Positions 459-10,358 of a stretch of DNA of 10,358 nucleotides are shown here, piece by piece. This DNA comes from Myxococcota bacterium (GTDB lineage: Bacteria; Myxococcota; XYA12-FULL-58-9; JALHOP01). The stretch covers positions 1 to 10,358 of the forward strand of contig JBGGMJ010000108.1 in assembly GCA_041288095.1 (NCBI GenBank). Direction: 5' to 3'. Position numbers and translations under genes: made by a program. The notes under the pieces are model-generated. The model was given only the letters and a program-made list of their open reading frames with translations. It was not told the DNA's origin and did not search any database. Position 1 is the stretch's first letter, and each line of letters starts with the position of its first letter.

Positions 459-2558
459 TTACTCGCTACGCGACAACACAAAGCACTGATGAATGCGGGG
501 ATTGCGCTCGAAGTCCTTGGGAATCGTGCTCTTCGTAATGTCCCGCGCCGCCAACCCGTGGAAATCGAGCTCGGCCTCCGCGAGCTTGAAGCGGCGGAAG
601 TTGTTGGAGAAGACGATCTGCCCCCCAGGGTTCAGCAACTTGGAGCAGCCAACCAGGAGCTCGACGTGGTCGCGTTGGACGTCGAAGTCGTGCGCGCGGT
701 CCTTGGAGTTCGAGAAGGTGGGTGGATCGACGAAGATGAGGTCGAAGCGCTCGCGAGCCTCCGCGAGCCAGGCGAGGGCGTCTTCCTGGACCAAACGATT
801 GCTGCGCTCGGAGAGCGAGTTCAAGCGGAAGTTCTTCTCGGCCCAAGCGAGATAGGTGCGGCTGGTGTCGACACTGACGGTCGACGTGGCGCCGCCGCGA
901 GCTGCATAGACGCTCACGGTGCAGGTGTAAGCGAAGAGATTGAGGAAGCTCTTCCCCTGCGCCATCTCGCCGATCAACTTGCGCGTCAGGCGGTGGTCCA
1001 AGAACAAGCCCGTATCGAGGTAGTCGCTGAGATTGACGATGAAGCTGTGTCCGCCTTCGCGAACGGTTACGATCCTGCCCTCGCTATCGTGCCGCTCGTA
1101 TTGCGCGTCGCCCTTTTGCTGCTTGCGCACCTTCACGAAGACGTCGTCGCCGCTAACGCCGAGAGCCTCGGGGATCGCGTGCAAGGCCTCCCGCAAACGC
1201 CGCTGGGCCATGCGAGGATCGATAGTCTTGGGCGGTGCGTACTCCTGCACGTGCACGAGCTTGCCGTAGCGGTCGACCGCCAAAGCGTACTCGGGAATGT
1301 CGCCGTCGTAGAGCCGGTAACATTCGACGCCGGCGCCCTTCGCCCATTTGCCGAGCTTGTCGAGGTTCTTCTTGAGACGGTTCGCGAAAGCGGTCTCACC
1401 CTCGGAGATGCGGAATGAGCGCGGGGTCTCGGCGAGCGTGTAGACGAAGAGCCAGCATGGGATCGAGCCGTTGAAGAAGCTGTAGCGCTTGTCGGCGCGT
1501 AGGCGCATGGCGCCGGCGATCTCGTCCTTGGCGGTCAGCGCGGCGGCGCGCCAGCCGGGAAACTTGGTCTTGAGGACGTTACCGAGCTCTTCGTAGAGGC
1601 TGGCGAGAGAGCGCCCCTCTTCGTCGCCGAGGCGCACGCCGTAGGGAGGGTTCACGACCACGAGGCCCGGGACGAGCTCGTGCGTGAGCGTCGACAAGGT
1701 CGCGCGTTCGATGCGGATGTGTTTGCCCAGACCGGCGGCGTGGGCGCCTTGGGCCGCGAGCTTGGCGCTGCGCGGGTCGGGCTCGAAACCGACGATGGGG
1801 GGCAGCTTGGGGATGCCTTCGGCGCGGCGCACCTTTGCTTCCTCGATGAGCCACTTCCAAGCGTCGGCCTCGTGTCCGCGCCAGCGGAGGAAACCGAAAT
1901 AGTCGCGCAAGAGGCCCGGTGCGACGTCGCCGAGCAGCATGCCGCCCTCGATGAGCAAGGTGCCCGAGCCGCACATCGGGTCGACCAGAGGTGTGTCGAG
2001 GGTCGGAGCCGCGCGCAACAGCACCGCGGCCGCCAGGTTCTCCTTGATTGGCGCCGGCACGTTGCCGTCGCGATAACCGCGCCGGTGCAGGCTCTCGCCC
2101 GAGAGGTCGATGCCGACGCTGGCTCTTCCCGCTTCGAGGTAGACGTTGACGCGGACGTCTGGCCTAGCCACGTCGACCGAGGGCCGCGTGCCGGTGTCGT
2201 CACGCAACCGATCGACGACGGCGTCCTTCACGCGTTGTGCGCCAAAGCGGGTGTGCACCGCCTCCGAGGCGTGCGAGGTGAAGTCGACGGCCATGGTGCC
2301 ACCGGAGTCGAGGTGGTCGCTCCAGCGAATGCCGCGGACCGCATCGTAGAGAGCGTCGGATGATTGAGCGTCGACCTCGGCGATGCGCATGATGATGCGG
2401 CTCGCGAGGCGCGACCAGAGACAGGCTCGGTAGGCGACGCCTAGTCCGCCGCTGAAGGAGACCCCGGCGCGTGTCTGCTGCACGTTGGTCGCGCCGAGCG
2501 CGGTCAGCTCGTCCGCGAGGAGAGGCTCGAGACCCTTGGCAGCCGTCGCGAAAAACAC
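459..2558 (-). CDS. rlmKL: Bifunctional 23S rRNA (G2445-N2)/(G2069-N7)-methyltransferase RlmKL
   Basis: 699-aa ORF. The RlmL half has FATAAKGLE, YRACLWSRLASR, a THUMP region, SLHRRGYR, APIKENLAAA, DPMCGSGT and NPPYG. The RlmK half has FANRLKKN, YRLYDGDIPEY, DYLDTGLFLDHR, LNLFAYT and DPPTFSNSK. GTG start with GAGGGG ~9 nt upstream. Confidence 0.96.
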   Translation of the reverse strand: MFFATAAKGLEPLLADELTALGATNVQQTRAGVSFSGGLGVAYRACLWSRLASRIIMRIAEVDAQSSDALYDAVRGIRWSDHLDSGGTMAVDFTSHASEAVHTRFGAQRVKDAVVDRLRDDTGTRPSVDVARPDVRVNVYLEAGRASVGIDLSGESLHRRGYRDGNVPAPIKENLAAAVLLRAAPTLDTPLVDPMCGSGTLLIEGGMLLGDVAPGLLRDYFGFLRWRGHEADAWKWLIEEAKVRRAEGIPKLPPIVGFEPDPRSAKLAAQGAHAAGLGKHIRIERATLSTLTHELVPGLVVVNPPYGVRLGDEEGRSLASLYEELGNVLKTKFPGWRAAALTAKDEIAGAMRLRADKRYSFFNGSIPCWLFVYTLAETPRSFRISEGETAFANRLKKNLDKLGKWAKGAGVECYRLYDGDIPEYALAVDRYGKLVHVQEYAPPKTIDPRMAQRRLREALHAIPEALGVSGDDVFVKVRKQQKGDAQYERHDSEGRIVTVREGGHSFIVNLSDYLDTGLFLDHRLTRKLIGEMAQGKSFLNLFAYTCTVSVYAARGGATSTVSVDTSRTYLAWAEKNFRLNSLSERSNRLVQEDALAWLAEARERFDLIFVDPPTFSNSKDRAHDFDVQRDHVELLVGCSKLLNPGGQIVFSNNFRRFKLAEAELDFHGLAARDITKSTIPKDFERNPRIHQCFVLSRSE

Positions 2559-2605
2559 GGGTTTCTTCCCCTCATGGCGCCCCAGGGCGCCTTATGCCAC
2601 AGTCC

Positions 2606-2611
2606 TACGCT
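2606..2611 (+). promoter_or_regulatory. Putative -10 hexamer (TACGCT) of a leaderless transcript
   Basis: TANNNT hexamer followed by exactly 6 nt (CCCCCC) and then ATG at 2618. No Shine-Dalgarno sequence is present. Confidence 0.4.
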
Positions 2612-2617
2612 CCCCCC

Positions 2618-3271
2618 ATGAGCATGGCGAATCGTCAGCCCCGAGTGGATACCCGCCTTCCGGTCGTCGAGACCGCAAGCGGCGGGGCCACCTACTACAC
2701 GAAGAACCTCAGTATGGGAGGCCTCTTCTTGCTCAGCGAGAAGCGCTGGCCCGTGGGTAGTGAGCTGAATCTCACGATTGCCTTCGGCCGCGCCCGCCTA
2801 CCCATCAATGCGCGGGTCACCCACCTGCAGCGCGACGGCGTGGGCATGTGCTTCATGGAGCCCAGCGACGCGGTGCGGGAAGCGCTGCGCTTGCTCATCG
2901 CCTCGCAGATCCCCGTGAACGAGCCCTCGCGCGCCGGCGCCATCGCGCGCGCCGTTGGTCTAGGTGGCGGGCCTTCGGTGGTCATCGCATGGAGCGACGG
3001 CAAGCTCCGCCACGAAGCCACGGTGCGCCGTCTCACCATGCACGGCGGGTTCTTCGAAACCCCGGACCGCCCCGACATCGGCTCGAACATCATGGTCTAC
3101 GTGCCGTCGAGCTTCGAAAACGAAGACGCCGAGATCGAGCATGAGCTGCGCGGCTGCAGCGCCGAGGTGACGGCGCACTCCGAAGAGGGCTTCGACGCCC
3201 GCTTCACGGTGCCGAGCGCCGAGTTTCGTATGGCGCTCGAGCGCCTGCTGCGAGAGCTTCCCGCGACGTGA
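2618..3271 (+). CDS. Tandem PilZ-domain protein (second domain degenerate)
   Basis: NRQPRV...TKNLSMGGLFL...WPVGSELNL...ARVTHLQRDGVGMCF matches the PilZ pattern (N-x-S-x-x-G). A second copy reads RRLTMHGGFFET...IGSNIMV...AEVTAHSEEGFDARF. The ORF-track start at 2471 overlaps rlmKL, so the real start is probably ATG 2618 (alternatives 2594 and 2624). Confidence 0.8.
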   Translation: MSMANRQPRVDTRLPVVETASGGATYYTKNLSMGGLFLLSEKRWPVGSELNLTIAFGRARLPINARVTHLQRDGVGMCFMEPSDAVREALRLLIASQIPVNEPSRAGAIARAVGLGGGPSVVIAWSDGKLRHEATVRRLTMHGGFFETPDRPDIGSNIMVYVPSSFENEDAEIEHELRGCSAEVTAHSEEGFDARFTVPSAEFRMALERLLRELPAT

Positions 3272-4173
3272 CCGCCGCACCGCTGCCGCCCGAGAGCTCC
3301 ATTGCCCGGCGTTACGGAGCGGCACGCGTGACCCTCGCCATCGCCGCGGTGCTCTTCTCCACCGGCGGCGCCGCCATCAAGATGTCGGTGCTCACGTCGT
3401 GGCAGGTCGCCTGCCTGCGCAGCGGCATCGCCACGCTCGTACTCGCCGTCGCTTGGCCGCTTGGGCGGACAGGTTGGACGCGCCGCACCCTCGTGGTCGC
3501 CATCACGTACGCGACGTGCGTGGTGTCGTTCGTTTCGGCGACCAAGCTCACCACCGCGGCCAACGCCATCTACATTCAGTCGACCGCTCCGCTCTACATC
3601 CTGTTGGTGGCGCCGTTGGTGCTGCGCGAACGCATCCGGCGTCACGACTACGTCATCGTCGCCCTCATCGCCGCCGGGCTCCTCGCCTTCTTCATCTCGG
3701 CGGACGCGCCGCAGGCCAGCGCGCCGAATCCCCTGCTCGGCAACGGTCTCGCGGTGATCTCGGGTCTTTCGTATGCCGGCATGCTCATCGGCTTTCGCTG
3801 GATGCAAAAGCCCGGGCCCGGTCATGCCGACGCCGCCACGGTCATCGTCGCCGGCAACCTGCTCGCCGCTCTGGTGTGCGTCCCACTCGCTTGGCCGCTG
3901 CCCGCGATGGGTACCGTCGACTGGTCGGTGGTCGGCTTTCTCGGCATCGTGCAAATCGGCATCGCCTACGTGCTCGTCACCCGCGGCGTGAAGCATGTCC
4001 CTGCCTTCGAAGCCTCGCTCATCTTGCTCCTCGAGCCGGCTCTCAACCCGGTATGGACGTGGCTCACCCTGGGTGAAGTACCGAGCCGGCTCGCCATCTG
4101 CGGTGGCCTGCTCATCCTGTCGGCGACGGTCGCCAAAAGCTGGCTCGAAGCCCGAGCGCCGACCACGACCTAG
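3268..4173 (+). CDS. DMT superfamily / EamA-type transporter
   Basis: ~300 aa with about ten hydrophobic segments in two repeats. Motifs: AVLFSTGG..IK, LTTAANAIYIQSTAPLY..L..PLVLRERI, ASLILLLEPALNPVW.W...GE.P. The GTG start overlaps the PilZ stop (GTGA). Alternative start is GTG 3328 with GGAG at 3316-3319. Confidence 0.92.
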   Translation: MTAAPLPPESSIARRYGAARVTLAIAAVLFSTGGAAIKMSVLTSWQVACLRSGIATLVLAVAWPLGRTGWTRRTLVVAITYATCVVSFVSATKLTTAANAIYIQSTAPLYILLVAPLVLRERIRRHDYVIVALIAAGLLAFFISADAPQASAPNPLLGNGLAVISGLSYAGMLIGFRWMQKPGPGHADAATVIVAGNLLAALVCVPLAWPLPAMGTVDWSVVGFLGIVQIGIAYVLVTRGVKHVPAFEASLILLLEPALNPVWTWLTLGEVPSRLAICGGLLILSATVAKSWLEARAPTTT

Positions 4174-7100
4174 TCGATCCCGTCCATCGAGAAGAAGAAC
4201 GCGGCGCCGTCGTCGACGCTGGCGCCGCCCGCCGACAGCGCTTTCGAGGCGGGTGCGCCGACGACGATGCGGGTTCGGGTGGCGCCGCGGCGAGCCGCGA
4301 TGGCTTCACCGAAGCGGCCGTCAGCCACGGCCTCGCCGCCCAGCCGCACCAGCAAGCGGTCGGAGAGACCGGCGCTCGTCGTGGTCACCACGTATTCGAA
4401 GCCAAAGACGGCTCCGCTCTTCGCGACCCCGTTGTCGCTCGAGAGCGGCGTGCCGACCAGCACCACGCCGGCCTTGCCCGCCAGCGCCGGCAAGGCGGCG
4501 ACGGAGGTTCCAAACTGTTCGCCGCCGGCGCTGCCGATCAGCACGTCAGCCTCGTCGGTGTCCGCAAAAGCGGTTACGGGGTATGGCGCCGCGGTCGACG
4601 TCGGCATGCCCGCGAGCCGCTCGCCCGGCACCACCCACACGGCTCCGAGCTGAACACCCAGCTGGTTGACGGTGTTGGAGGTCACGACCAGCTCGTTGAC
4701 CATGCGGCCGCCCACCGCTTTGCCGTCGAGGTCGGCGGCCGCGAGCGCGCGACCGGCACCGCCGGCGGGGATCTGCGAGCGCAACATGGCGAAGCGAGGC
4801 CCCGCGGTGCACGACACGCCGGTGCCGAACACCACGAGGACGCCGCCTTCGTTCGGCACCGTCGACGACGACTCCCAGCGGTCCGCGGCAACCGCGAGCT
4901 CGTCACAGCCGTCGCCGTCGATGTCGCCGAGCGGCAGGAGCTCGGCGCCCATACGGTCCCCGGTGACAAAACCGCGCACGTCGAGCACGGGCGAGCACAA
5001 GACCTTGGTCTTGCCGGCGACGGGCCCTTGGCCGAGGTAGACGCGAAAGCCACCAACGGTGGCGATGGGTGTGGCGTCCAGACTCGGCCAGGTGACACCG
5101 CCGACCGCGAGATCGCGCTTGCCGTCGCCGTTGAAATCGAAGTCGCCGGCGACGCTCGCGAGCTCGCCGGTCGGGCTGAAGACGACGAAGCGCGGCATAG
5201 GGTCGAGGCCGCCAGCGACGCTCCCATAGACGTAAGCAGCGCCTGTCGAACCTGGGCAGGTGGCGTCGACCTGGAAGCTCGCGGGCAAAGTCGCGGGTCG
5301 CCCCTCGCGCAGCGCCAGTACGCCGAGGTCGGCACGGCCGTCGCCGTCGAAGTCGCCCAAACGGGCCACGCGATTTCCGAACTGATCGCCGGCGCCGTGC
5401 AAAACGTGCTTCTCGAGCACCGCGAGTGGCGTGCTCTGACCGCCACGATACACCATGACCCGCCCGGCGTTGATGCCGTCATTGGTGGCGACACCGACCG
5501 CGACGTTGGCGAGCGGCGCGCCCACCGCCACCTCGTCGATGCCGTCACCGTCGAGGTCACCGAGCAGCGCTACCGAAGCTCCGTGCTGCTGCAAGGCGGA
5601 GCGACCGGGCATCCCCATGTCGACGTCGAGAGCCCCGCCATCGGCGGCACGCAGCCGCAGCGCCCCGAAGTTCACGCCTTCGCTGTCGCCATCGCGGACA
5701 TGCACGACGATGTCGGCACGGCCGTCACCGTCGACGTCACCCGCGGCGGCGATCACGTTGCCGAAGCGGTCGAGAGCGACACCGCTCTCCATGGTGCGCG
5801 CCGCGACGCTCGCCGGCAGACCGCCGGGGACGCCGGCATGCACGCGGGCGACGCCGGCATCCGTGAGGCTCGGCAGGTCGAAGCCGATACAGCCGACGAA
5901 AAGCTCGCTGGCGCCGTCGCCGTCCGCGTCGACGGCGTCGACCGAACCGCCGCACAGCTGGCCGGCCGCCGACCCATCGTAGGTGGCGTCCGCCTGCGCG
6001 GTCGTGATGTCGGCCCCATCGAGCACCGCCCGGAACACCAGAGCGCGACCGTTGGGTGTCGAGCGCTCGCCGGTGAGGATCTCTGGACGGCCGTCGCCGT
6101 CGAGGTCGCGAAGCGCAAGGCCGCGACCGAGCTCGGTGGCGGCGGCTCCCGCGATGGCTCGGATGATCATCGCGGGTCTCGGGTCGGGAGCGCCGCCGGC
6201 GTCGAAGCGGTAGACCACCAAGGCACCGTAGGCGGCCGTCGCGCCGCTCGGCACGTAGCCGGCCGCCGTCGAGACCAGCTCGCAGCGGCCGTCGCCATCG
6301 AGGTCCGCCGCGGCGAGCACGCTACCGAGACGGAGATTCGCGACCGCGTCCAAGGTGCCGCCGACGTTCGGCAGCGCGCCGTAGAGTGCCCGCTCATTGG
6401 CCGTGTCCAGACCATCGGGTGAGCCCGAGAAGATGCGAATGGCTCCCTGATTGGCGACCAGCGCTTGGGCGGCGACGCTCTCGCTCTGCGGCGCGCCCAC
6501 CGCCAAGTCGGTGATGCCGTCGCCGTCGAAGTCGCAGGCCGCGAGCGCTTGGCCAGCGAGGTCGAGCGGTGCGCGACCGAGGATGGTCTGGCGAGCCTCG
6601 GTGGCGAAGAGCTCGCCCGTCGGGGACGGCGCGAAGACGCGCACCAGACCAGCGTCCGCGAAAGCGGCGTCGGCATTCGGCGCTCCCACGGCGAGCTCGA
6701 GCATGCCGTCGCCGTCGAAATCGCCTAGAGCGATCGAGGTTCCGAAGCGCTCGCGATTCGCGGCGCCGGAGATGGTCAGCGTCGGTTGCCAGCGTCCGCC
6801 GAACGCGGGAGCGCCGCGATAGACGTAAACGGCGCCGGAGAGCGCGTGCGCGTACGAGGTATCGGCATAGCCGACGATGACGTCGGCATAGCCGTCGCCG
6901 TCGAGGTCACGCGCCTCGATGGCCGGCATGAAGATGGCGGTGAAGATGTCCTTGTCACCGCCACGGGCGAACGGTGCTTCAAGCGGCGGCGCGACGTCGA
7001 GGGTCACACGCGTAGTCTGCTCCGTGAAGACGTCGGTGACGGTGAGGGTTTGCGACCCAGGCGCCAGCGCCTCGAGCATGCCGTCTTGAAAGCGCGAGAC

Positions 7101-7802
7101 GATCCCGTCCGCGTCTGCGCTCACATGACCGCTCCCGCCGCGAACGTGCAAGGTCGTGCGCGAGCCGACCGGCAAGGCGATGTGCGCTGGGCTCGCCTGC
7201 AAAACCGCGTCGAAGCTCACTTGGATCGTGGCGTCACGTGTCGTCTTGGTGACGCTGTCGGTAACCCGAACGACATCGACGCCGGTTCGTGGCCCAGCGG
7301 TGTAAACTCCGGCTGGTGTGATGACCGCGCCGGAGACCGTCGAGTGAACCTCGTAGGTGAACGAGCCCGAGCCCATGCTCGCACGCATCGCGAAGCTCGT
7401 TCCCGGCGGCACGCTCGCGGTGCCCGGTTGCACGACCAAGAGCTGAGGAACTTCGACGATGGCGACGGCCTCGCCCTCGCACTCCGCGGCGGTGACACGG
7501 ATCCGATCGCGAACGCCGGTGGTCGCCCCCGCGAGGTATGATCCGTCGTCCGGGTTGATGTGTGCCCCTGACGCGTTGTCAGAGATGTCGAACGCATATT
7601 CACCACGCCCGCCGCTCGCCGATAGCTTCACGAGGGCAAGCGGCGCGACGACTGCGACCTCTGGGGAGAGCGTCAACGGCGGATTGCACGTGGGTAAACC
7701 CTCACGGCGCTCGCGTGTCCCGCCAATAAATCCATTACAACCCGCGATGTAGATCACGAGCAGCGACAACTTGGCAGTGCGCAAAACGACCATGCAAGCC
7801 AT
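4170..7802 (-). CDS. Predicted lipoprotein with three Ig-like repeats and 14 FG-GAP (integrin-alpha beta-propeller) repeats
   Basis: The signal MACMVVLRTAKLSLLVIYIAG-C has a lipobox-like IAGC (Cys codon 7739-7737). Three ~75-aa beta-rich repeats follow (~7676-6993). There are 11 intact D-x-[DN]-G-D-G-x-x-[DE] loops plus 3 degenerate blades with FG...GAP/GTP motifs. Start is ATG 7802 or 7793; the 8009 start overlaps the divergent gene and is rejected. Confidence 0.9.
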   Translation of the reverse strand: MACMVVLRTAKLSLLVIYIAGCNGFIGGTRERREGLPTCNPPLTLSPEVAVVAPLALVKLSASGGRGEYAFDISDNASGAHINPDDGSYLAGATTGVRDRIRVTAAECEGEAVAIVEVPQLLVVQPGTASVPPGTSFAMRASMGSGSFTYEVHSTVSGAVITPAGVYTAGPRTGVDVVRVTDSVTKTTRDATIQVSFDAVLQASPAHIALPVGSRTTLHVRGGSGHVSADADGIVSRFQDGMLEALAPGSQTLTVTDVFTEQTTRVTLDVAPPLEAPFARGGDKDIFTAIFMPAIEARDLDGDGYADVIVGYADTSYAHALSGAVYVYRGAPAFGGRWQPTLTISGAANRERFGTSIALGDFDGDGMLELAVGAPNADAAFADAGLVRVFAPSPTGELFATEARQTILGRAPLDLAGQALAACDFDGDGITDLAVGAPQSESVAAQALVANQGAIRIFSGSPDGLDTANERALYGALPNVGGTLDAVANLRLGSVLAAADLDGDGRCELVSTAAGYVPSGATAAYGALVVYRFDAGGAPDPRPAMIIRAIAGAAATELGRGLALRDLDGDGRPEILTGERSTPNGRALVFRAVLDGADITTAQADATYDGSAAGQLCGGSVDAVDADGDGASELFVGCIGFDLPSLTDAGVARVHAGVPGGLPASVAARTMESGVALDRFGNVIAAAGDVDGDGRADIVVHVRDGDSEGVNFGALRLRAADGGALDVDMGMPGRSALQQHGASVALLGDLDGDGIDEVAVGAPLANVAVGVATNDGINAGRVMVYRGGQSTPLAVLEKHVLHGAGDQFGNRVARLGDFDGDGRADLGVLALREGRPATLPASFQVDATCPGSTGAAYVYGSVAGGLDPMPRFVVFSPTGELASVAGDFDFNGDGKRDLAVGGVTWPSLDATPIATVGGFRVYLGQGPVAGKTKVLCSPVLDVRGFVTGDRMGAELLPLGDIDGDGCDELAVAADRWESSSTVPNEGGVLVVFGTGVSCTAGPRFAMLRSQIPAGGAGRALAAADLDGKAVGGRMVNELVVTSNTVNQLGVQLGAVWVVPGERLAGMPTSTAAPYPVTAFADTDEADVLIGSAGGEQFGTSVAALPALAGKAGVVLVGTPLSSDNGVAKSGAVFGFEYVVTTTSAGLSDRLLVRLGGEAVADGRFGEAIAARRGATRTRIVVGAPASKALSAGGASVDDGAAFFFSMDGID

Positions 7803-7830
7803 GCCAACCCCACCAGCGGGTTCGTGAGCG

Positions 7831-7843
7831 TGTACGCCGTACA
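7831..7843. promoter_or_regulatory. Palindrome in the divergent promoter region, candidate operator
   Basis: TGTACG-C-CGTACA is a perfect dyad inside the 106-bp intergenic gap between divergent genes. Confidence 0.4.
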
Positions 7844-7908
7844 ACGATCGCGAGTCACCGGGTTGCGGGCGTGGGGCATGGCGACGACTCGTCACAGGGG
7901 ACCAGACG

Positions 7909-9669
7909 ATGAAGAGCAAGCGGCTCATCGAGCTTGTGTCCGCCATTGCGGTCTTCGCTATTTCGATGCCCATGGCCCGCGAGGCGCGCGCCCAAGCCAA
8001 CGCGTGCATGCCCGACGACGGAGTGCTCGAAGCGCATCGCTACCTACGCGCCATGAGCCTCGACCTGCGCGGAGAGCTGCCGAGCGACGATGAGCTCGCC
8101 GCGCTCGACGCGGCCGCCGATCCACTGACGCGGGCGCGGGAGCTCGAGCGCGAATGGCTCATGAGCGACGCCTTCGCCGAGCGGGTGGTGCGGCGCCATC
8201 ACGACCTCCTGTGGAACAACCTCGGGAACCAGGGCCTCGTCGGCAACCAACAAGGCATCGCCCCGACACGCGTGCCTCTCGAAGACGGCACCACGGCGAC
8301 CAAGCTCATCTACACGCGCCCGGCCAACAACCGATCGCTTCTGTACCGCGGCATCATGGTCGGCGGAGCGTTACCCGTCATCACCAAGCAGATCCCCTGC
8401 CTCGCCATCCCGCAAGCGACCCTGAACGCGATGACCGATGCCCAGATCAAGGCCAAGTGGGGCACCACGGTGACGTATGGGGAGCGCAACGGCATCCGTT
8501 ACATCGACCTGAGAAATCCGTTGAGCGCCACCGACACCAACGTCGACACCCTCTACCACCGTGAGGGCTACGTCGACGTGCATCCGTTCTGGGCGCCGGC
8601 GACCACCATCTCGATCTGCGCTTTCGACGGCCAGGAGCGGGAGGTCAGCGTCGACGGCGTCACGCGCTGCGATGACACCTTCCTCATCGGCAACGACCTC
8701 TCCTGCGGCTGCGGCCCATCTCTCCGCCATTGCGGAGTTGGTGAGGTGACGACGACGCTGCTCAAGTCGTTCGCCAAGGCGGTCGACCTGCAGGTACGCG
8801 ACGCCGTGCAGGGCGGTGGCAATTACTACGACGGCCTTTTCCTGTCGTCCAAGACCTACGTCAACGGCCCGATGGCCTTCTTCTACACCTATCTCAATAC
8901 CGTCTACCGGCAGCTCGACCTGGCACCGGCCCCGGTGCCCAACCTGCCCAGCGACCTCATCGACTTCACCAAGGTCGATGACTGGCGCGCCATCGAGGTC
9001 GGCCCACACGCCGCCGGTGTCTTGACCTCGCCCGGCTTCCTGCTGCGCTTTCAGACCAACCGCGCCCGCGCCAACCGCTTCTTCGACAAGTTCCTCTGTC
9101 TGCCGTTGCAGGCCCCGGCTCAAGGACTCCCCGCCCCCGACGATCCGTGCAGCGCCGAGCCCGACCTGCAGAAGCGTTGTGGTTGCGGCTACTGCCACAT
9201 CGTCCTCGAGCCGGCAGCCGCCCACTGGGGGCGCTGGAGCGAGTCGGGCGCCGCGTACTTGAGCGCCGCCGAATACCCCAAGGATCGCACCGACTGCACG
9301 GCCTGCGCCGCCAGCGGCAATCCGGCGTCGTGCAGTCTCGAGTGTCGCCAGCGCTATCACATCACGCCGCAGATGGCGGGCGACCCCTACCTCGGTGTCT
9401 TCAGGCCTTACGTCTTCTTGAAGGAGCAACACTTCGCCAACGTCGAGAACGGGCCACGCCTCTTGGTGCTGTCATCGATGGTCGACGGCTCGCTCCAAGA
9501 CTGCACAGTGAGGCAAGCCTTCGAGTGGCTCGTTGGGCGCGCACCGGAAAGCAACGACGAGGAAGCGTGGGTGGCGCAACTTGGCGACGACTTCGCCGCC
9601 GCCAATTACGACTATGGGGAGCTCATTCGCGCCATCGTCGAGAGCGACAACTACAGGAGGGTGCCATGA
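7909..9669 (+). CDS. Secreted Cys-rich CxxCH protein with DUF1549-like N-terminus and DUF1585/DUF1553-like C-terminus (planctomycete PSCyt/PSD-type cytochrome-like family)
   Basis: AGGGGA RBS at 7896-7901 and a Sec signal with probable ARA|Q cleavage. Motifs: YLRAMSLDLRGELPS..E, HAAGVLTSPGFL...RANRFFDKFLC, CGYCH (9184-9198), CTVRQAFEWLVGR...DFAAANYDYGELIRAIVESDNYR. 17 Cys counted. Confidence 0.8.
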   Translation: MKSKRLIELVSAIAVFAISMPMAREARAQANACMPDDGVLEAHRYLRAMSLDLRGELPSDDELAALDAAADPLTRARELEREWLMSDAFAERVVRRHHDLLWNNLGNQGLVGNQQGIAPTRVPLEDGTTATKLIYTRPANNRSLLYRGIMVGGALPVITKQIPCLAIPQATLNAMTDAQIKAKWGTTVTYGERNGIRYIDLRNPLSATDTNVDTLYHREGYVDVHPFWAPATTISICAFDGQEREVSVDGVTRCDDTFLIGNDLSCGCGPSLRHCGVGEVTTTLLKSFAKAVDLQVRDAVQGGGNYYDGLFLSSKTYVNGPMAFFYTYLNTVYRQLDLAPAPVPNLPSDLIDFTKVDDWRAIEVGPHAAGVLTSPGFLLRFQTNRARANRFFDKFLCLPLQAPAQGLPAPDDPCSAEPDLQKRCGCGYCHIVLEPAAAHWGRWSESGAAYLSAAEYPKDRTDCTACAASGNPASCSLECRQRYHITPQMAGDPYLGVFRPYVFLKEQHFANVENGPRLLVLSSMVDGSLQDCTVRQAFEWLVGRAPESNDEEAWVAQLGDDFAAANYDYGELIRAIVESDNYRRVP

Positions 9670-10325
9670 AGCTCGAGTACGCTTTAGCGGCCGCCCTGGT
9701 AATGCCGCTCGCCTGCAATGTGTCCGATCCCGACGGGCCGGACTTTGCCGACGACCCCGGGCCGGGCGACGTCACCGAGCCGCGCCGCGAACCGGTCGTG
9801 GTGCAACGCGAGCGACGCCGTCTGGACATCGATCAACTCGATGCCGCCATCAAGCGCGTCACGGGTGGCCTGTACTGGGTGCGGGTCGGGGACACCACCA
9901 AGACCAACCAGCTCGTCGCCCTCGCAGCGAGCCTCGGCAAGCCCGACTACGTTGAGATCACCGAGGAAGACCTGGCGCCGACGTCGCTGTTCCTCAAGTT
10001 CTTGAACGACGCCAGCCGCGCCGTCTGCGCCGAGCTCATCAAGGCCGAGGCGACACGTCCCGAGCGGGTCTTCGTGGCCCCAGCGTCTTTCACCGATCAG
10101 CCGGGATCTCCGGTGGTCGACGCGACCTTGCGACGAGCCATCCTCCGTTTTCACGGACAGAAACCAGATGATGCTTCGCTGTCACCGTGGGGCACGTTGT
10201 TCGCCACGGTGGTCGCACGAGACGCCGCGGTCAACGCCGCCGGCAGCGCCGAGGACCACGTGAAGGCAGGCTGGAACGCGGTCTGCGTCGCGCTCATCAC
10301 CCACCCCGACTTTTACACCTACTGA
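9666..10325 (+). CDS. Putative lipoprotein (219 aa) resembling the C-terminal part of DUF1553/PSD-type domains
   Basis: ATG 9666 overlaps the upstream stop (ATGA). MKLEYALAAALVMPLA-C is a lipoprotein signal followed by a D/P-rich linker. Motifs: RRRLDIDQLDAAI..VTG and C-terminal WNAVCVALITHPDFYTY. The ORF-track start at 9147 overlaps the upstream gene and is rejected. Confidence 0.8.
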   Translation: MKLEYALAAALVMPLACNVSDPDGPDFADDPGPGDVTEPRREPVVVQRERRRLDIDQLDAAIKRVTGGLYWVRVGDTTKTNQLVALAASLGKPDYVEITEEDLAPTSLFLKFLNDASRAVCAELIKAEATRPERVFVAPASFTDQPGSPVVDATLRRAILRFHGQKPDDASLSPWGTLFATVVARDAAVNAAGSAEDHVKAGWNAVCVALITHPDFYTY

Positions 10326-10335
10326 GGATGCAGCC

Positions 10336-10358
10336 ATGAAGAACGAAGCCGGATTGAA
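10336..10358 (+). CDS. 5' end of the next operon gene (MKNEAGL...), truncated by the window edge
   Basis: GAGGA RBS at 10324-10328 overlaps the previous stop, and ATG at 10336 is open to the edge. The product cannot be determined from 7 codons. Confidence 0.6.

Follow-up and report, generated by a model that had tools for sequence, protein, structure and literature searches.

In the sections of the two papers considered here, modules that combine DUF1501 with PSCyt/PSD domains come from Planctomycetes, Verrucomicrobia and Lentisphaerae, hereafter PVC bacteria (Kamneva et al. 2012, PMC3542564; He et al. 2017, PMC5615132). The former text reports DUF1501 with PSCyt1/PSCyt2/PSD1 partners and leaves their function open (Kamneva et al. 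2012, PMC3542564), and the latter states that nothing is known of the function of the PSCyt/PSD-DUF1501 modules (He et al. 2017, PMC5615132). The cluster described there as the "most complex" consists of four genes, encoding a DUF1501 protein, a PPC-like protein with a signal peptide, a PSCyt1/Big_2/PSCyt2/PSD1 protein and a PSCyt1/WD40 protein (Kamneva et al. 2012, PMC3542564). Here we describe a related locus on contig JBGGMJ010000108.1 (C108) of the Myxococcota bacterium assembly GCA_041288095.1. The window that we analyzed is this entire contig of 10,358 bp, from an assembly of 5.85 Mb in 212 contigs that is 90% complete. Positions 4170 to 10,358 probably hold four members of an extracytoplasmic system of five genes that is conserved in Myxococcota. 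Judged from its predicted proteins, the cluster represents a five-gene form, found in Myxococcota, of the published PSCyt/PSD + DUF1501 module. New here are a conserved FG-GAP partner, a second, co-directional gene order and the repeated loss of the fifth gene, E, apparently also in the window. The features of the locus, with protein lengths in amino acids (aa), are as follows.

4170-7802, minus strand: A, a predicted 1210-aa lipoprotein running from the ATG at 7802 to the stop at 4170, with integrin-type FG-GAP blades.
7803-7908, no strand: the divergent intergenic gap of 106 bp between A and B.
7909-9669, plus strand: B, 586 aa, predicted to be Sec-exported, of the PSCyt2/PSD superfamily, with a CxxCH motif.
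9666-10325, plus strand: C, a predicted lipoprotein of 219 aa, helical, of no Pfam family.
10336-10358, plus strand: D, the first 7 codons of a DUF1501 protein predicted to be Tat-exported, the remainder of which lies on another contig of the same genome (G000:C127:1-1305).

In both the PVC module, as described in the sections considered, and the present locus, an exported CxxCH-bearing protein of PSCyt2/PSD type stands immediately upstream of a DUF1501 protein with a Tat signal, domains for protein interaction or binding are frequently attached or lie alongside, and the function is unknown. In contrast to the PVC module, the myxobacterial parts are split into separate genes, with the cytochrome c domain on E, the PSCyt2/PSD part on B and a PSD-like lipoprotein as C; the host belongs to the Myxococcota, the window's B falls below the Pfam cut-offs and a FG-GAP lipoprotein of ∼1200 aa is a conserved extra member. 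The four-gene PVC cluster, on the evidence of the same sections, resembles our locus in its multi-gene form, in joining a cytochrome c domain to a domain of repeat or propeller type (in the PSCyt1/WD40 protein there, in E here) and in including another exported protein whose family is unclear, but it has no counterpart of A, and its accessory proteins can be likened to ours by description only. The term FG-GAP has no occurrence in the text of PMC3542564 and is likewise absent from the passages of PMC5615132, and supplementary locus figures could show one. Our literature searches found no paper joining FG-GAP with DUF1501, DUF1549 or DUF1585, and none with DUF1501 plus DUF1553; the one FG-GAP paper on Myxococcus concerns a different locus, and the DUF1800 papers, judged by title and abstract, are irrelevant. 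The B-C-D core is likely to be related to the PSCyt/PSD + DUF1501 pairs found in Planctomycetes and Verrucomicrobia, from which it differs in being compact and split into separate genes.

A preliminary description of this DNA, made from the sequence alone, had proposed that the FG-GAP lipoprotein would be found linked to the CxxCH operon in other genomes. This linkage is strongly supported. In a first survey of 41 related genomes, B was matched in 18 at E ≤ 0.001, and 11 loci were examined. C followed B in all 11, and a gene of 450 to 480 aa followed C in nine, three scanned copies of which were DUF1501; as for the two exceptions, one contig ends inside C and crude gene calling failed on the low-GC locus L028. 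A full-length divergent A homologue stood upstream in three of these loci (59%, 34% and 32% identity), and in L029 the homologue lay downstream on the same strand. For a wider survey, a pattern scan covering a single genome for each species gave 204 B relatives, and the best 80 loci were analyzed by tblastn. Nearly all of these 80 loci come from metagenome-assembled genomes, whose labels are Myxococcota, Bradymonadia, Polyangia, Sandaracinaceae or Deltaproteobacteria apart from a few odd ones. Where at least 900 nt of downstream sequence was available, C followed B in every locus (76 of 76), and where at least 2400 nt was available, D followed C in every locus (63 of 63); in the window, D begins after C and continues on C127. 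A divergent A homologue (at least 600 aa aligned, 30-37% identity) was present upstream in 46 of the 59 loci with at least 6.5 kb of upstream sequence, and in most relatives A and B are 1.4 to 2.7 kb apart. Among the 13 loci lacking A, eight represent a distant subclade in which D has at most 42% identity, and the other five (L047, L052, L058, L059 and L087) are members of the main clade.

These differences can be placed on a quick maximum-likelihood tree of 78 B sequences, from which the partial-B loci L080, L100 and L109 were excluded. All 52 A-linked rows fell into a single clade of 68 rows (SH-aLRT 97) that contains the window, together with 5 rows without A and 11 that could not be judged. 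The window's lineage, which has no E, sits on a long branch (1.15) in this tree. At L047 (1-9810), which has neither A nor E, a 3270-aa protein with Big_9, cadherin-like and TSP3 domains and a C-terminal OmpA domain sits upstream of B. Beyond A to E, clustering of 1152 open reading frames (ORFs) from 81 loci brought up only kinases and other sporadic genes as conserved neighbors, with histidine kinases near 11 of the 81 loci and Ser/Thr kinases near 7.

We then assessed the linkage in a phylum sample of 301 genomes, in which A was matched at E ≤ 1e-40 in 97 and B in 124; the latter include one genome flagged as unpublished (G195), on which no claim depends. B was found in 96 of the 97 genomes with A; in the last of these, G020, a contig end carries a fragment of B. 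Of 101 A matches, 88 lay within 12 kb of a B match on the same contig, comprising 12 in divergent orientation (gaps of 107-2992 bp) and 76 that followed B on the same strand, with a median gap of 3.8 kb. The remaining 13 were on contigs without B among the matches listed, four B matches being unlisted. The co-directional order dominates family f17, whose listed genomes are mostly 7 to 13 Mb and often closed. All five co-directional loci that were examined had the order B-C-D-E-A with gaps of tens of bases, and a sixth locus, from another family, had A divergent from E-B-C-D, so that E adjoins A in both orders. Since these two gene orders exist, the linkage of A to the module has survived rearrangement. 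Within the window's own genus, G003 has the cluster, and both G001 (97% complete) and G002 (94% complete) lack A as well as any close B. Because A is single-copy, its chance proximity to B within 12 kb in genomes of 5 to 13 Mb would be well under 1% per genome.

The fifth gene, E, emerged from the same ORF clustering as a protein of ∼400-500 aa located between A and B in most relatives, at the position taken up in the window by the gap. Neither E nor D, the DUF1501 protein that defines the module, was within reach of the preliminary description, which had only the window to see. E is a predicted lipoprotein with a repeat domain followed by a C-terminal, class-I-like cytochrome c domain. The Pfam family Cytochrome_CBB3 was matched at 3e-6 and 2.2e-6, with 2 of 6 scanned copies exceeding the cut-off. 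Across 27 sequences the CxxCH of E is invariant and is followed downstream by a Met-Pro pair in which Pro is invariant and Met at least 90% conserved. For the N-terminal domain we obtained weak leads only, to Y_Y_Y and to propeller clusters (score 0.77). Of the 52 A-linked rows, 43 have E and nine lack it, namely the window, L033, L049, L050, L068, L077, L086, L090 and L092. Together with L047, the rows without E occupy six or seven places on the B tree, some of them in one poorly resolved group, from which we estimate four to seven independent losses. Full-length E was not found in the window's 90%-complete genome with either a protein query or a 27-row profile, and the window's genus has probably lost E, so that A and B abut. 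Two ORFs of this genome, at G000:C187:32702-33040 (565 aa) and G000:C173:3463-3657 (133 aa), match the cytochrome c end of the E profile only, at E 1.2e-4 and 5.9e-6, respectively. A search of the window's genome for PF07635 (PSCyt1) was silent, as it was in control genomes, and hence is uninformative.

The protein encoded by A begins MACMVVLRTAKLSLLVIYIAGC and has the lipobox LVIYIAGC; among its orthologues a lipobox was recognized by regular expression in 39 of 50. Pfam placed FG-GAP on A with an E-value of 1e-45 (153.4 bits against a cut-off of 22.1, in 7 stretches) and FG-GAP_3 with 1.7e-29. In a sequence search of the PDB, residues 288-444 and 888-1029 matched integrin alpha propellers (best 3e-11), with the propellers of integrin alpha-5, alpha-4 and alpha-IIb as the best solved matches. 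Eleven Ca2+-loop motifs of the form DxDxDGxxD/E span residues 299-968. The label "integrin-like" in the preliminary description is thus valid at the family level. As in integrin alpha beta-propellers and bacterial FG-GAP proteins, FG-GAP repeats in A carry DxDxDGxxD Ca2+ loops; unlike integrin alpha, A is a bacterial lipoprotein with blades sufficient for two propellers and an unrelated N-terminal region, and it has no beta-subunit partner, transmembrane segment or cytoplasmic tail. The blades start after an N-terminal region of ∼270 aa. No Pfam family was matched in the first 300 aa, which are conserved among orthologues. In a genome of the same order, a 1716-aa ORF (G004:C109:7418-9742) contains five tandem copies of a domain like A residues 38-216, and because of these copies we consider the N-terminal region of A to be a mobile repeat domain for which Pfam has no model. 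A is present as a single copy in the window's genome, and a NCBIfam scan of A, B and C gave no match.

The genes on the plus strand appear to be coupled at their junctions. The stop of B and the start of C share the sequence ATGA (9666-9669), and the C stop TGA (10323-10325) overlaps a GAGGA that lies 7 nt ahead of the ATG at 10336, confirming the ATGA overlap and the stop/ribosome-binding-site overlap noted previously. C has an N-terminus with MKLEYALAAALVMPLAC, and its lipobox, VMPLAC, is not textbook since Pro occupies position -3. Its orthologues had a clear lipobox in 11 of 11 first loci by eye and in 49 of 77 by a strict regular expression. Of the export signals that had been claimed for all three complete genes, the lipobox of A and the Sec signal of B stood as described, and that of C has to be qualified as atypical at -3 in the window although clear in orthologues; lipid attachment of A and C is accordingly a prediction from the lipobox. 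The model of C is helical with a predicted local distance difference test score (pLDDT) of 89.8. A wide VIA-align search with it gave a best Z of 5.6, to a phycobilisome linker domain, which is inside the noise range. The ESM Atlas model of C resembles PSD5/PSD1 parts of larger PSCyt/PSD proteins at a template modeling (TM) score of 0.55-0.57, which may serve as a lead only. Pfam returned only scattered chance matches on members of the C family. A relationship of C to B was considered and rejected, as profile-profile comparison gave a probability of 0.2%.

D follows C across an assembly break. In the same-genus locus L022, C is followed by a DUF1501 protein of 453 aa (6.6e-24), and C127:1-1296 corresponds to residues 23-452 of this same-genus D at 74% identity, with a Pfam DUF1501 match of 8.9e-29. 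Since C127 opens with these residues, the B-C-D operon spans an assembly gap of ∼15 codons, which includes the twin-arginine motif and falls between C108 and C127. The same-genus orthologue begins MKRAPQLNRRTFMK, with the twin-arginine signal RRTFMK. Both arginine positions are conserved in at least 90% of 46 sequences, and Pfam TAT_signal matched D of L026 at 0.0019. The module's export signals are therefore represented by the Tat signal on D orthologues and the Sec signal on B, the window's own arginine pair lying in the assembly gap. D41, T109, H112, D291, H293, D355 and H356 are each conserved in at least 97% of 73 D sequences. We take these residues to be the metal-ligand and Thr-nucleophile pattern of the alkaline phosphatase superfamily, to whose Pfam clan DUF1501 presumably belongs. 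Sequence and profile searches for solved relatives of D gave chance matches only. On balance, the conserved residues suggest that D is an active hydrolase.

The window's B has an n/h/c-type Sec signal, identified by eye, that ends ARA|QA, and its CxxCH is CGYCH at residues 426-430; both are as the preliminary description had claimed. Pfam matched PSD2 at 7.8e-5 (22.8 bits against a cut-off of 25.8) and PSCyt2 at 0.002 on the window's B, both under the curated cut-offs, and no PSCyt1 cytochrome c domain was matched, the cytochrome c domain of relatives being encoded by the separate gene E. Among 78 family members at E ≤ 0.05, matches were found to PSCyt2 in 75, PSD2 in 70, PSD1 in 49, PSD4 in 30, PSCyt3 in 28 and DUF1800 in 3, so that the label "PSD-type" is likewise borne out at the level of the family. 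Operons combining DUF1800 and DUF1501 occur in many bacteria and share with our locus a two-gene core of a helical exported partner and a Tat-exported DUF1501 protein. B is, in contrast, much closer to the PSCyt2/PSD models, and DUF1800 proteins are not known to carry CxxCH. The AlphaFold2 model of B has a pLDDT of 89.7 and a predicted TM score of 0.87. Foldseek of this model against the PDB gave nothing at E ≤ 0.001, and a B profile search of solved structures gave 0 matches. In the alignment, window positions 8220-8560 (B residues ∼105-215) contain extra segments that occur in the window's genus and are absent from most relatives; the model is less confident there, with pLDDT blocks of 57-73 around residues 141-160 and of 68 around residues 201-210.

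Five proteins predicted to be exported are thus kept together, with A, C and E as lipoproteins, B as a Sec substrate and D as a Tat substrate. The five genes very probably constitute one functional system, and we put the chance that their products form a physical complex at about even. As a working model that we consider probable, the system would be a membrane-tethered periplasmic enzyme complex in which A acts as a Ca2+-dependent binding scaffold. D would be the catalytic metallo-hydrolase, keeping Asp41, Thr109, His112, Asp291/His293 and Asp355/His356, with B as its obligate partner, probably with one covalently bound haem. C, translationally coupled to B, would tether B and D to the membrane, and lipid-anchored A would capture or present a ligand or partner via its propellers. 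Where present, E may connect the haem of B to other electron carriers.

Several observations weigh against this model, and they are given here with the alternatives that they favor. The place of D in the alkaline phosphatase superfamily depends on the presumed Pfam clan of DUF1501, and the profile search found no solved relative. As for B, the haem is open to challenge, since the proteins could instead make up a purely hydrolytic or binding complex in which the CxxCH is a disulfide or metal motif and the "cytochrome" reading does not apply to this branch. C426 and C429 are two of 12 cysteines that are invariant in the B family (17 in total in the window's B) and could be disulfide or metal ligands. 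The high-confidence B model showed no detected cytochrome fold, the best match in a wide VIA-align search being a phycobilisome linker domain at Z 5.8, inside the noise range, and no cytochrome c family was detected by sequence. E, the sole clear cytochrome c of the system, is absent at six or seven places on the tree with the CxxCH of B unchanged; because E has been lost repeatedly while B keeps this motif, an obligatory electron path from E to B is doubtful. Against such a haem-free complex, C426, C429 and H430 are all invariant in 78 of 78 B sequences, deep clades included, so that the histidine of C-x-x-C-H is retained along with the cysteines. The motif forms the start of a helix in the secondary structure of the model, the window's genome encodes cytochrome c assembly genes (3 matches above cut-off), and most relatives keep the cytochrome c lipoprotein in the cluster. 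Weighing these, we regard a purely hydrolytic or binding complex as a tentative alternative, and the sequence pattern tips the balance slightly toward B binding one covalent c-type haem.

A different explanation holds that A is an unrelated surface or adhesion lipoprotein, merely an inherited neighbor of B-C-D that shares no function with it. Here the absences of A count: the five main-clade loci named above have no A within 10 kb, two basal B clades (10 rows) show no A, and 28 genomes of the phylum sample have B without A at E ≤ 1e-40, which indicates that some B-C-D units do without A. The gap between A and B also seems to contain no conserved regulatory element. It is indeed 106 bp long (7803-7908), as the preliminary description had it, but the "dyad elements" reported there did not hold up. 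No inverted repeat of at least 8 nt was found in it, and its 4 dyads with arms of at least 5 nt (longest 6) compare with 2.0 on average over 1000 shuffles; 17.8% of the shuffles reached the dyad count and 37% the arm length. A search of the gap for sigma-70-like promoters found none, and the gap gave no alignment with that of the same-genus orthologue, so that it differs between these two genomes; co-regulation by way of the dyads is thus unsupported. On the other hand, the linkage has outlasted rearrangement between a divergent arrangement and a tightly packed co-directional one, nearly every genome with A has B, both are jointly missing from two same-genus genomes, and chance would seldom bring a single-copy A so close to B. 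A bystander role for A is accordingly unlikely, and we retain the enzyme complex with A as its scaffold.

The preliminary description had itself suggested a contact-dependent redox sensor or a prey/surface device, with an adhesin-like A signaling through the haem protein, and although A is integrin-like with 11 predicted Ca2+ loops and a predicted lipid anchor, the cluster is confined, as sampled and by record titles, to Myxococcota, many of which are predators, and L047 has its cadherin/Ig/OmpA protein in place of A, we judge it improbable, given that no signaling domain is conserved in the cluster and kinases occur nearby only sporadically, that the surface location of A is presumed, and that catalysis rather than sensing is indicated because the invariable partner is an enzyme-like DUF1501 protein.

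The remainder of the window, which has a GC content of 61-72% across its length, holds the following genes outside the cluster.

459-2558, minus strand: RlmL-type methyltransferase.
2471-3271, plus strand: PilZ protein.
3268-4173, plus strand: EamA transporter.

This RlmL-PilZ-EamA block adjoins the 3' end of A and is inverted wholesale between the window (459-4173) and L022 of the same-genus genome G003 (802-4500). The order is RlmL on the minus strand followed by PilZ and EamA on the plus strand in the window, and EamA and PilZ on the minus strand followed by RlmL on the plus strand in L022, with protein identities of 78-87%. An ORF at the contig start (1-270), open at its 5' end and 89 aa long, had no Pfam match. 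The segment 4170-10358 was matched in whole or part by four soil-metagenome DNA runs, and none of the runs listed as matching it was RNA.

PSCyt/PSD + DUF1501 pairs rank among the most extensive families of unexplained genes in Planctomycetes and Verrucomicrobia, and the sections of the literature considered here describe their function as unknown. The Myxococcota form is single- or low-copy, split into small genes and accompanied by two extra conserved partners, A and E. In f17, a family of large and in many cases closed genomes, the apparent one-operon arrangement B-C-D-E-A makes genetics and biochemistry practical, unlike the hundred-copy PVC families, and the repeated natural loss of E is a built-in comparison. 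At its boldest, which we think quite improbable, A-E-B-C-D would be a single lipid-anchored envelope machine in which the integrin-like double propeller of A captures a polymer derived from prey or matrix in a Ca2+-dependent manner and passes it to an enzyme pair of DUF1501 type that depends on haem, while electrons exit via E. If true, this would represent a new, redox-assisted form of extracytoplasmic ester processing and would provide the first function for the PSCyt/PSD-DUF1501 superfamily.

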